DNA of 64,000 nucleotides from assembly GCA_943787795.1 (NCBI GenBank), contig CALSNU010000003.1:32001-96000 (forward strand). The letters run 5' to 3'. Source of the stretch: an uncultured bacterium. Lineage in GTDB: Bacteria; Planctomycetota; UBA1135; GCA-002686595. Shown here piece after piece: positions 1 to 3,000 of this stretch (position 1 is its first letter; each line of letters starts with the position of its first letter). Position numbers: made by a program.

Positions 1-3000
1 GGCCCTCGTGGCCTCAGGTGCGCTCGCCCTGGGTGTGCTCCTGGTGTTCCTGATGTCGCTCGGGGGGGGGGCCTCGGACCCGTCCGCGGCGAGGCCAGAT
101 CGAGGTCCGATCTTCGGCTATGTGGTGAAGGAGGCCCGTGGCCCTGGCCTGAAGCCCCTGGGGAACTAGCGCGCGGACCTGCTCGCCAGCCGGCGGTCGA
201 GGCCGCCCGTCGCGGCGCCTCTCGGAGCGCTCCGCCGGGCCTGCTTCGACTCACAGGCGGCGCGGTTGAATCAGCCGGCGCGGGTCGTCACCCTCTCCCC
301 CTATGGCACGGAACGCCCACGGGCCGCCCTTCGCGGCGGTCGTCTTTGACTGCGACTCCACGCTCTCCACCATCGAGGGGATCGAGGAGCTCACCGCTGA
401 GCATCCGGAGATCGCCGCGCTGACCGGGGCCGCCATGGAGGGACGGGTGCCCCTCGAGGAGGTCTACGGCCGTCGGCTCGAGCTGGCCGGTCCCGTCGCT
501 GCGGACATGGAGCGCATCGCGCTCCGCTACGCGGCGACGACCATCGAGGGGACCGCGGATCTGATCGCCGCGTTGCACCACCTCGACAAGTGCGTGGAGA
601 TCGTCTCCGGAGGGCTGCTGCCTGCCGTGCGCCCGTTCGGGGTCCAGCTCGGGGTGCCCTCCGCGCGGATCCATGCGGTGGACCTGAGGTTTGACAGCAG
701 CGGAGCCTACGTCGATTACGACCGGCGGTCCCTGCTGGCGCGGGCCGGCGGAAAGCGCGAGCTGCTCGAGGAGCGTTTTCCGGCGGGTGACGTGGCGCTG
801 GTGGGGGACGGCGCCACCGACCTCGAGGCCAAGGACGCGTGCGCGCGGTTCATCGCGTTCACGGCCGTGGAGCGTCGGCCCGACGTGGTCGCGGGCGCAG
901 ATGTCGTGGTGGACCGGGCGGACCACGCGGCCGTGCTGCCCCACCTGGTCTCTGTCGACGAGCTTGAGGTCCTCCGGGCCGTGCCGGGCGGCCGCTTCCA
1001 TGGCCTCTTGGCCCGCATGGACGGAGGCCAACCGTGAGGCCCGAGCTCTGGATCCCTGGACCGACCGAGGTCCGCGGGGACATCCTCTCGGCCATGGCGG
1101 CGCCCATGATCGGGCACCGCTCGGCGGAGATGCGAGCGGTGATCCAGGGGCTCGATCCCTACCTCGAGGCGCTCTTCGGGACCTCGGCGCCGTCTCACCG
1201 CGTCGCGGTCCACTCGTGCACGGCGACGGGCCTCATGGAGATGGCCCTGCGCGGGAGCGGGGAGCGCGTGCTCTGCCTCGTGAACGGGGCCTTCTCCCGG
1301 CGCTTCGCGACCATCGCGGAGGCGCTCGGGAAGGAGGTGGTGCGGATCGAGTCCCCGGCCGGGGCGCCGCCCGATCTCCTCGCCGCGCAGCAGCAGCTCT
1401 GCGGCGAGACCTTCGACGCGGTCACCGTCTGCCTCAGCGAGACCTCTACGGGGGTCGCGGTGACGCCCGCCGAGGTCTCGGATGCACTCGGGGAGCGAGG
1501 CGGGGCCATGCTCGTCGTGGACGCCGTCACCTACCTCGGAGCGGCCCCGATCGACGCGGCGGCCAACGGACTCGACTTCGTGCTGGCGGGGACCCAGAAG
1601 GCCCTCGCGCTGCCGCCAGGGCTGGGGCTGTATGCCGCCAGCGCGGCAATGCTCGAACGGGCCGCGGCCGCCCATGACCGGGGCTTCTTCCTCGATCTGA
1701 TCCGGATCACGGAGGCTCACGCTGACGGTCGTCCGCCAATGACGCCCACCATCTCCCTCCACCTGGCGCTCCTGCGGCAGCTCCAGGACATCGAGGCGGG
1801 CGAGGTCGAGCTGGAGCTGACCGATGAGGCCGCGGAGGACCTCGCGCAGCTCGACGGGTGGCAGCGCCGTTATCGGCGGCACGCCCGAATGCGTGACATG
1901 ACCGGCGAGTTCCTCGCCGCGCGGGGTCTCGCGCCCCTGGGAGGGCGGCCAGCCTCGCCCTCGGTGACGTGCGCACCGATCGGCGGGCGAGACGTCCCCG
2001 CCCTGCTGGAGCGCATGCTCGGCCGCGGCTTCCAGCTGGCGCCGGGCTATGGCGACCTCCGGGACACGACGATCCGGATCGGACACATGGGGGACCATGG
2101 AGTGGGGGCGCTGGCGGGGCTGCTCTCAGCCCTCGGCGCCGAGCTGGGCGCGGATTGAGCGCGAGGCGAGCACTTCTGCCGGCAGGGCGACTGGCGGTGT
2201 GCTAAAACTTGCACCGGACGGGAGTGGATCGGTGCTGGTGTGCCGCCCGGTCTTCAAAGCCGGTTAGGGCCTCGTGAACAGCGTGGGCCGGTGGGTTCGA
2301 TTCCCATGCACTCCCGCCATTCAATTTCACCTCCTCCTCTCTGCCGGGGTGCCTTGTTGCAGCCTGAGCCTGAGCCCGAGCCTGATCTTGCCGAGCCTGA
2401 GCCTGAGCCTGAGCCTGAGCGCGGATGAGGGCGCCACTGGTGAAGTTCGTCCCCGCCGCGCGGCGCCGGCCACCTACCTTGTGCCCGGAGCATCGATTCG
2501 GGGGACGGGGGTCGGCCCCGTCTGAATGGACTTTGTCTGAATGGACTCCGCTGGAATGGAGTACGCCTGAATGGACTCTCTGTCTGTCCCCATGGCGGCC
2601 TTGCTGACTGGTCCTCTGACAGGCTCTCTGACTGCCCCCTGATCAGCGCCCCCGATCCGCCAGGTCCTGCCCGCCCTCTGCCACTCACTCGATGACCGTC
2701 AACGCACATCCCGCCAGCCAGCGCGGCGTGGATCAGATGGACCTGCCCTGGTCGCTGCGCGCCATGCAGCTGGGCTTTCGGGTGCTCCGCCTCGTGTCCA
2801 GGCGCGCCGCCGGCCGCCTGGCGCTCCACCTCTTCGTGACGCCGCGGAGACACACGCCGCCGGCTCGCGAGCTGGAGGTGCTGGCGCTCGGTGAGCGGTT
2901 CAGCGTTGCGCACCGCGGGCGGAGCCTCGCGGCCTGGCGCTGGAGCCGGGAGGAAGGCACAGCCGAGCGGGGAACCGCGATCCTGGTGCACGGCTGGGAG

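Follow-up and report, generated by a model that had tools for sequence, protein, structure and literature searches.

Of the selenoprotein sequences in the GOS ocean metagenome, 82.3% are reported to be homologues of thiol oxidoreductases or to possess a thioredoxin fold, the leading families being SelW-like proteins, SelD, Trx-like proteins (UxxC), AhpD-like proteins (CxxU), PrdB (UxxC), Prx-like proteins (UxxC), FdhA, ArsC and MerP (PMC2398784). Organisms with at least six selenoprotein genes are defined as selenoprotein-rich, and most of the bacteria described as such to date are anaerobes. In the accessible text of a 2016 bacterial survey, Deltaproteobacteria, Clostridia and Synergistetes are the only rich groups, 78.3% of the rich organisms are anaerobes and the word Planctomycetes does not appear (PMC5029168). 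Syntrophobacter fumaroxidans carries 39 selenoprotein genes and Desulfosediminicola up to 46 (PMC5029168, PMC12013277). Within the Planctomycetes, the bacteria P1 and P2 associated with Porphyra were described in 2016, with six selenoproteins in one genome (PMC4807772).

We analyzed a planctomycete genome of 4.71 Mb (8 contigs, roughly 70% G+C, 84.9% complete), starting from a stretch of 64,000 nucleotides (C3:32001-96000) that we refer to as the window. ARAGORN predicted a tRNA-SeC with the anticodon TCA at 2220-2319 on the + strand (C3:34220-34319), and the Rfam model RF01852 matched the same positions with 69 bits (gathering threshold 47, E 5.3e-12) over model positions 1-91 of 91. Both searches support the genome-wide survey's note, which had placed a tRNA-Sec here. 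The gene (selC, anticodon UCA) encodes its CCA end, and the RNA adopts a cloverleaf as its minimum-energy fold, in which the D stem has 6 bp and the extra arm is long; the z-score of the fold (-1.39) is by itself not significant. It is the one tRNA-Sec among the 45 tRNAs of the whole genome and the only part of the Sec system located within the window. Two further positions in the window, C3:39802 and C3:83286, were considered as selenoprotein candidates and rejected, as an ATG lies right behind the TGA in each. A third raw candidate within the window, C3:68703, is not among the counted genes either. We are highly confident that the feature at 2220-2319 is a tRNA-Sec gene and belongs to a complete bacterial Sec-insertion system that serves at least 24 genes.

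SelA, which converts Ser-tRNA-Sec to Sec-tRNA-Sec, is encoded at C5:184772-185863 (400.9 bits). SelB, which brings Sec-tRNA-Sec to those UGA codons behind which an mRNA hairpin (SECIS) lies, is encoded at C1:1418037-1419932 (350.2 bits including in-frame neighbours, cut-off 242.25). SelD, from which selenophosphate synthesis is expected, is itself a selenoprotein in this genome: its TGA lies at C5:186287, and TIGR00476 scores 332.4 bits (cut-off 125) on the read-through, with the match starting at residue 99 and U being residue 109. The scores of these three profiles bear out their earlier identification. TGA terminates 1,497 of 1,765 confident ORFs (at least 200 codons), in agreement with the earlier count of 3,073 of 3,660 genes, and the codon is therefore not reassigned.

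An independent codon-usage scan of all TGAs yielded 153 raw candidates, most of which were gene boundaries, and 40 were taken forward. A gene was counted as a selenoprotein gene if a domain spanned the TGA or if the TGA was conserved in relatives. Scan and follow-up across the whole genome support 24 selenoprotein genes, which together contain 25 Sec codons, whereas at least 20 (21 genes and 23 codons) had been claimed before. The number is to be read as a minimum, and the edges of the set are uncertain, because the genome is incomplete and the first scan overlooked N-terminal Sec codons (SelD, ArsC). A scan of C-termini returned 13 weak candidates. C5:48764 (EYG-U-GGG) matched no family, had no homologue among five relatives and was left out of the 24. 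Rejected were also a kinase with the TGA in its leader (C2:142161), a ZIP gene followed by an efflux transporter (C1:1274344), C1:1102631, which resembles antisense translation and matched no Pfam or NCBIfam family, and C3:104998, C4:456112, C1:870671, C4:704132 and C1:1243227, likewise without a family match in Pfam or NCBIfam. C2:771250 and C7:119410 do not enter the count.

A Pfam domain crosses the TGA in 14 of the 24 genes, namely Rdx (77.6 bits), CMD (46 bits), Molybdopterin (223.7 bits), HMA (39 bits), Glutaredoxin (24.6 bits), AhpC-TSA or Redoxin in six genes (66.7, 68.6, 63.7, 55, 32.5 and a weak 22.8 bits) and Thioredoxin_7 in three (43.7, 43.6 and 28.2 bits). NCBIfam models match across the TGA in four further genes: SelD, a SelL-related gene (102.5 bits, cut-off 120), a relative of the zinc-ribbon (seleno)protein DG (53.5 bits, cut-off 130) and a PrdB-like gene, which at 111.6 bits against the TIGR04483 cut-off of 300 is to be read as a PrdB/GrdB-like protein and not as a PrdB equivalog. 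The peroxidase-related model was matched with 134.4 bits (cut-off 81.8), the metal-binding (seleno)protein model with 45 bits (cut-off 95) and the WAxxUGC model with 50.5 bits (cut-off 300). Five NCBIfam (seleno)protein models describe families that are related and have Sec at a site of the same type. Only the ArsC family model NF041106 was matched over its cut-off (130.5 against 85 bits), and the Sec-containing N-terminal motif of this protein, located at residue 14, reads G-U-TSC. The genes matching NF041115, NF049953, NF041054 and NF040769 are relatives rather than members, given 45-102 bits against cut-offs of 95-300. For six of the 24 genes, neither Pfam nor NCBIfam provided a matching selenoprotein model. 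As far as these two collections are concerned, the six fit the earlier proposal of families outside current inventories. The W-U-AGC, HMA, DG and ArsC-like genes already have related models in NCBIfam.

All 14 known-family genes listed before were located at in-frame TGAs. The motifs agreed for FdhA (AAT-U-HAP), Rdx/SelW (CTQ-U), AhpD/CMD (CHY-U), ArsC/Spx-like (G-U-TSC), Prx-like (G-U-TFC), Trx-like (W-U-GWC and L-U-SQC), DsbD (T-U-VVC) and PrdB/GrdB-like (PV-U-PMC) genes and for three of the four TlpA-like genes described as W-U-GPC; the fourth, at C1:189924, reads R-U-GPC. In the TlpA-like gene with the TGA at C1:753692, the N-terminal part is distributed over three frames, and this gene may be a pseudogene or affected by assembly errors.

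In seven genes, among them the six without a selenoprotein model, the TGA occupies the identical alignment column in relatives with as little as about 30-40% identity, and the U columns coincide exactly for six of these seven families. The GCT-U-GNG family retains the TGA in 34 of 36 non-self matches, the other two being partial matches that do not cover the site. For the I-U-IC family the numbers are 15 of 18, with three C-terminal partial matches, and the TGA is likewise kept in relatives for the FG-GAP, ASPIC, SC-U-G and DG families. One paralogue displays U-U in place of the C-U of the present genome, and one relative encodes at least 20 Sec-containing paralogues of the FG-GAP family. TlpA-like matches in five genomes of the order carry the TGA in 14 of 21 cases. 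A single-contig genome of the same genus (G012, 7.7 Mb) keeps it in six of seven family searches and also in TlpA-like matches. Of 61 genomes of the order, 59 have SelA, as do 290 of the 401 genomes sampled from the phylum; together with the orthologues that retain the TGA, this supports the previous view of Sec use as a lineage trait. One family has 75 homologues in a public protein database, all of which span at most 78% of the read-through, consist solely of the part behind the TGA and are annotated as 'hypothetical proteins' or unnamed. Standard gene callers evidently truncate these predicted selenoprotein genes at the TGA.

The protein with two Sec codons is encoded at C4:265186-265836 and has no Pfam or NCBIfam match. 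In its AlphaFold model (mean pLDDT 61.1) the elements of domain 1 follow the order of an HMA domain, for which a beta-alpha-beta-beta-alpha-beta fold is expected with the metal-binding residue at the beginning of helix 1, and U71 opens the helix 71-84. HMA domains make up most of the top Foldseek rows (probability 0.92-1.00, TM 0.55-0.66 by target, E 0.02-0.1), with no match at E <= 0.001. Matches were found in 17 of 17 genomes of the same genus; both TGAs are kept in 18 of 20 non-self matches and one TGA in the other two.

Were the in-frame TGAs ordinary stops, the read-throughs would be split genes, pseudogenes or same-frame neighbours, and only a few classics such as FdhA and SelD would be real. 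Indeed, TGA is the main stop codon, the gene at C1:753692 shows frame changes upstream, and gene boundaries account for most raw candidates: an M18 peptidase (C6:300379) and an SSF transporter (C1:65705) begin past the TGA, C4:151825 is the end of RecG, C4:82519 belongs to L7/L12, and at C5:193707 an ACP is followed by a CrtI-like gene. The counted genes behave differently. Single domains extend over the TGA and have U in place of the catalytic Cys. In relatives at 30-60% identity, the codon and the sequence on either side of it are kept in frame, even for both TGAs of the two-Sec gene, and C-U and U-U interchange among paralogues. We therefore regard termination at these codons as extremely improbable. 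UGA could also be decoded without selenium at some or all sites, by near-cognate insertion of Cys or Trp or by read-through, to give full-length proteins. The evidence considered here is sequence, and the hairpin energies are compatible with such decoding: the segments from +3 to +48 fold with a mean energy of -16.6 kcal/mol compared to -14.2 kcal/mol in 800 coding controls (Mann-Whitney p 0.0019), but they do not differ significantly from windows behind ordinary TGA stops (p 0.064). However, GGTCT, which we take to resemble the loop of the E. coli fdhF SECIS, is found 20-28 nt past the TGA at 9 of 25 sites but in just 870 of 20,000 windows drawn at random (p 6e-7 in a binomial test, for a motif picked after inspection). 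In addition, the genome contains the complete Sec machinery, which nearly all members of the order share, and the sites coincide with redox-Cys positions in families for which Sec use is known. Decoding without selenium thus appears very improbable, and we infer that Sec is incorporated at the 25 UGAs.

A simple hydrophobicity rule for signal peptides was passed by 12 of the 24 proteins, and one more was added by eye. The putative exported set would comprise four to six TlpA/ResA-like UxxC reductases, DsbD with T-U-VVC in its C-terminal thioredoxin domain, two proteins each of the HMA-like metal-binding and the FG-GAP/ASPIC beta-propeller type, and three that belong to no known family. About half of the selenoproteins are of known type and probably cytoplasmic: FdhA, SelD, Rdx/SelW-like, AhpD-like, ArsC-family, SelL-related, PrdB-like, DG zinc-ribbon and Trx-like proteins. 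The genome-wide survey's note described the selenoproteome as dominated by exported thiol-disulfide oxidoreductases. About 13 of the 24 do look exported, but TlpA/ResA/Trx/DsbD types account for 9, or for 12 with the thioredoxin folds of Rdx, ArsC and the SelL-related protein included, and the other proteins with predicted export are HMA-like, FG-GAP/ASPIC or of no known family. Outside the cytoplasm, Sec-containing DsbD would hand electrons to the Sec-containing TlpA-type reductases.

How does this set compare to described selenoproteomes? As in the GOS metagenome, thioredoxin-fold and thiol-oxidoreductase proteins with UxxC or CxxU motifs dominate, and SelW-like, SelD, AhpD-like, PrdB-like, Prx-like, ArsC, FdhA and MerP-type proteins are common to both (PMC2398784). 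Whereas GOS provides a community list without organisms, the present set belongs to one genome and lineage and adds the FG-GAP, ASPIC, tandem HMA-like, GCT-U-G, SC-U-G and I-U-IC families as well as a Sec-containing DsbD; the terms 'periplasm', 'extracellular' and 'signal peptide' are absent from the accessible text of the GOS paper (PMC2398784). With the rich anaerobes, in which the SECIS lies right behind the UGA, the genome shares a large set and SelA, SelB, SelD and tRNA-Sec; it differs from them by two heme-copper oxidase genes, a single FdhA, a lone PrdB-like gene below the PrdB cut-off and the apparent export of over half of the set (PMC5029168, PMC12013277). The two oxidase genes (COX1 matches) suggest an aerobic lifestyle. 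The set is not FdhA/Grd-centred, in line with the proposed contrast to anaerobes; at the community level, the thioredoxin-fold pattern was already known (PMC2398784). P1 and P2 belong to the same phylum and resemble the present genome in the full Sec machinery and in FdhA plus antioxidant-type selenoproteins, while the accessible parts of that paper claim neither richness nor new exported families (PMC4807772).

One may object that the selenoproteome is real but ordinary, that a marine selenoproteome rich in thioredoxin folds has been described and is largely covered by existing models, and that its novelty is an artefact of gene callers stopping at TGA. The leading GOS families match the known-family half of the genome (PMC2398784), four less obvious genes have related (seleno)protein models in NCBIfam, and planctomycete selenoproteins were reported in 2016 (PMC4807772). 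The statement that Planctomycetota had not been singled out as Sec-rich is in keeping with our full-text literature search, which found no such paper. On the other hand, 24 genes amount to four times the threshold of six, and the phylum is not one of the rich groups of the survey, in which most rich organisms are anaerobes, as far as its text is accessible (PMC5029168). The six genes without a model, the database homologues of one family, all 75 of them truncated, and the FG-GAP paralogues of the relative also argue against an ordinary selenoproteome, and we found no literature linking 'selenoprotein' with 'FG-GAP'. We consider it rather unlikely that the set is merely ordinary. As a possible and still tentative reading, we propose that the order, and much of the phylum, may be unrecognised major selenium users, whose aerobic members would have some of the largest bacterial selenoproteomes. 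These would consist mostly of lineage-specific, exported, always-Sec proteins with Sec next to Cys or nearly so (U-C, C-U, C-x-U), forming with Sec-DsbD and Sec-TlpA an extracytoplasmic selenium redox/metal system.

Under this proposal, the selenoproteomes would amount to 24 or more genes in the present genome and might exceed 40 in the relative with the expanded FG-GAP family. Independently of it, the thioredoxin-fold selenoproteome of the ocean, mostly known without an assigned organism, gains an organismal home in this lineage, and six or more candidates for new selenoprotein families become available for characterization. The set also raises the question why an aerobe would put so much selenium outside the cytoplasm.

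The stretch starts at C3:32001 (G000:C3:32001-96000; G000 is the genome under study and C1-C8 are its contigs), and the tRNA-Sec gene that the genome-wide survey's note had placed at C3:34220-34319 therefore equals window positions 2220-2319. ARAGORN called a tRNA-SeC with anticodon TCA there on the plus strand, the only tRNA inside the window, and the Rfam tRNA-Sec model RF01852 matched positions 2220-2315 with 69 bits against a gathering cut-off of 47 (E 5.3e-12). It is the single tRNA-Sec gene among the 45 tRNAs of the whole genome (8 contigs, 4.71 Mb, 68.7-70.8% G+C per contig). 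At minimum energy the tRNA folds into a cloverleaf whose D stem has 6 bp and whose extra arm is long, yet the fold energy alone is no proof because the z-score against shuffles is only -1.39. Directly upstream on the same strand lies a class-V aminotransferase gene (window 1034-2158; PF00266, 47.5 bits), whose fold is common to cysteine desulfurases and selenocysteine lyases. An alpha/beta hydrolase gene and an NfeD-family gene follow on the 3' side, and a run of GAGCCT/GCCTGA hexanucleotide repeats occupies window 2357-2420, just 3' of the tRNA gene. The 64-kb window itself contains no selenoprotein gene.

The remaining Sec machinery is encoded elsewhere in the genome: SelA at C5:184772-185863 (400.9 bits), SelB at C1:1418037-1419932 (350.2 bits summed, cut-off 242.25) and, 3' of SelA, a SelD (TIGR00476, 332.4 bits, cut-off 125) that has a TGA in frame at C5:186287, within the motif AACAG-U-AAK, where U denotes TGA read as Sec. 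Among the 1,765 confident ORFs that reach 200 codons or more, 1,497 end in TGA, in agreement with the 3,073 of 3,660 genes on which TGA had earlier been described as the usual stop. There is therefore no genome-wide reassignment of TGA.

We searched for recoded TGAs using a codon log-odds model trained on long ORFs. A TGA was kept if the 30 codons before it and the 30 after it scored as coding and shared their best-scoring frame. This whole-genome scan returned 153 raw candidates, and two extra passes covered N-terminal and C-terminal sites. Most of the raw candidates represent gene boundaries with a start codon directly after the TGA. Forty candidates were advanced as read-through ORFs; 29 were scanned against Pfam and 26 against NCBIfam. 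In 14 genes a Pfam domain spans the TGA: FdhA (Molybdopterin, 223.7 bits), a Rdx/SelW-like protein (77.6), AhpD/CMD (46), an ArsC-family protein (Glutaredoxin, 24.6), an HMA protein with GMT-U-GAGC (39), six TlpA/ResA-like proteins (AhpC-TSA or Redoxin; 66.7, 68.6, 63.7, 55 and 32.5, plus a weak 22.8 under the cut-off) and three Thioredoxin_7 proteins, among them a DsbD of 861 residues in which this domain is C-terminal (T-U-VVC). NCBIfam models for an ArsC family (seleno)protein (130.5, cut-off 85) and a peroxidase-related enzyme (134.4, cut-off 81.8) were exceeded. Matches below cut-off were obtained for a SelL-related redox protein (102.5 of 120), PrdB (111.6 of 300, the figure reported before), zinc-ribbon (seleno)protein DG (53.5 of 130), a metal-binding (seleno)protein (45 of 95) and the WAxxUGC protein (50.5 of 300). 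The total came to 24 predicted selenoprotein genes with 25 Sec codons, in a genome that is 84.9% complete and by a scan that may miss terminal Sec codons; this modestly raises the 21 genes and 23 codons of the survey's note.

Three loci deserve a comment. At C6:69151-70462 a TlpA-like W-U-GPC gene and a Trx-like W-U-GWC gene are adjacent and slightly overlap, which hints that Sec-containing proteins of the thioredoxin fold are encoded in one operon here. The TGA that ends DsbD (C2:479166) is followed by 95 more open codons with coding signal in the same frame, probably a neighbour gene that shares the frame. The N-terminal part of the TlpA-like gene with TGA C1:753692 lies in three frames (C1:752800-753700), with a signal peptide in one and coding signal in the second and third; the gene is either a pseudogene with frameshifts or affected by assembly indels.

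Six genes matched no selenoprotein family in Pfam or NCBIfam: a 216-residue protein with two TGAs (C4:265186-265836), a GCT-U-GNG protein (C2:427083-428411), an I-U-IC protein with a weak DsbD_N domain (C6:580997-582640), an FG-GAP protein with W-U-C (C2:619317-620618), a 962-residue FG-GAP/ASPIC protein with T-U-S (C8:4490-7378) and an SC-U-G protein (C1:989302-990456). The strongest evidence for these putative families is conservation of the TGA in relatives. The two-Sec protein was found in all 17 same-genus genomes compared; both TGAs recur in 18 of 20 non-self matches and one in the other 2, at identities down to 37-44%. GCT-U-GNG proteins occur in 27 of 40 relatives, spread over seven or more of the order's families, and 34 of 36 non-self matches carry a TGA, the other two being partial and stopping short of the site. 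For I-U-IC the count is 15 of 18, the rest being C-terminal fragments. One-TGA orthologues of the FG-GAP, ASPIC and SC-U-G proteins were found in the five genomes chosen, and of the DG-like protein in the four of five that gave a match. Alignments of six of these families place every U in one column with conserved flanks. An SC-U-G paralogue in a relative (L077, G020:C17) reads G-U-U-G, with adjacent Sec codons, where G000 has C-U. TlpA-like matches carried a TGA in 14 of 21 cases across five genomes of the order. Candidate C5:48764 had no homologues in five genomes and was left out of the count. A database of 5.8 billion proteins yielded 75 GCT-U-GNG homologues, all 258-375 residues long and covering no more than 78% of the query's 442 residues; those with a name are called 'hypothetical protein' and come mainly from Planctomycetota MAGs, and no full-length Cys form appeared within the length range searched.

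The 45 nt after the TGA at 25 sites have a mean folding energy of -16.6 kcal/mol, more stable than 800 in-frame coding controls (mean -14.2; Mann-Whitney p 0.0019) and not significantly different from 800 windows after ordinary TGA stops (mean -15.1; p 0.064). Many of these hairpins present GGTCT in the apical loop, which presumably resembles the SECIS loop of E. coli fdhF. GGTCT lies 20-28 nt past the T of TGA at 9 of 25 sites versus 870 of 20,000 random windows (binomial p 6e-7, for a motif seen before the test).

Export was predicted by a crude rule (best 10-residue Kyte-Doolittle mean of at least 2.1, starting within the first 28 residues). It picked out twelve of 24 gene models, all with a hydrophobic stretch that begins inside the first 12 residues. 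The W-U-PPC TlpA-like gene makes a thirteenth, since a signal-like segment is clear by eye when an alternative start is used. The thirteen are DsbD, four TlpA/ResA-like proteins and the W-U-PPC gene, the HMA, ASPIC, two-Sec and FG-GAP proteins, and three proteins of unknown family. A Cys directly follows the hydrophobic stretch in the HMA (LVAC) and ASPIC (TAPGC) proteins, possible lipoprotein signals. Predicted export would so cover roughly half or a little more of the set. The survey's note had called the set dominated by exported thiol-disulfide oxidoreductases; export was predicted for 13 of 24 (by simple rule and eye), and the thiol-disulfide share was overstated, with 9 of 24 genes of that type. 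A model of the two-Sec protein from nine genus-level sequences (mean pLDDT 61.1) has a beta-alpha-beta-beta-alpha-beta order in which U71 opens the first helix. HMA domains make up most of its top Foldseek rows, although E is 0.02-0.1, and the protein might tentatively be read as two HMA-like domains with a single Sec at each metal-site position.

SelA was found in 59 of 61 genomes of the order (10 families, 38 genera), the two lacking it being 78% and 83% complete, and across the phylum in 290 of 401 evenly sampled and 173 of 243 high-quality genomes. G052, a 5.1-Mb, 96% complete genome from another family of the order, carries at least 20 FG-GAP paralogues (L069, L097-L116) with Sec at the homologous site, as W-U-C in 3 and G-U-C[IV]GFGPQL (G-U-C[IV]GFGPQLVDLNGD) in 17; the count covers one full-length locus and 20 fetched regions, with one unclear and two matches unfetched. 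A single predicted selenoprotein family is greatly expanded in this one genome. Four TGA-bearing I-U-IC homologues and two TlpA-like ones were also present, which brings the sum from just three queries to at least 26.

In a survey of more than 5,200 organisms, 'selenoprotein-rich' means six genes or more; Deltaproteobacteria, Clostridia and Synergistetes are named there as the rich groups, 78.3% of rich organisms are counted as anaerobes, and the word Planctomycetes is absent from the text (PMC5029168). The record is 46 genes, in a Desulfosediminicola (PMC12013277), and a Porphyra-associated planctomycete was credited in 2016 with Sec machinery and six antioxidant-type selenoproteins (PMC4807772). 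In the GOS ocean metagenome, 33 of 51 families (82.3% of sequences) are thiol-oxidoreductase homologues or have a thioredoxin fold; SelW-like, SelD, Trx-like, AhpD-like, UGSC, Prx, PrdB and Prx-like lead, and MerP is listed (PMC2398784). The known-family half of our set mirrors this list, lone PrdB-like gene included. The survey's note understated what ocean metagenomes and curated models had already shown. A Saltatorellota preprint gives ~70% G+C for two other genera placed in its new phylum, in a text without 'seleno' words. We found no published description of this lineage or its families in the literature on planctomycete and FG-GAP selenoproteins, supplementary tables excepted. Two heme-copper oxidase subunit I genes would fit an aerobic lifestyle. 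The earlier observation is confirmed and modestly extended, and its reading was right in substance: judged from sequence, this would be a selenoprotein-rich, probably aerobic planctomycete lineage with a largely exported set.
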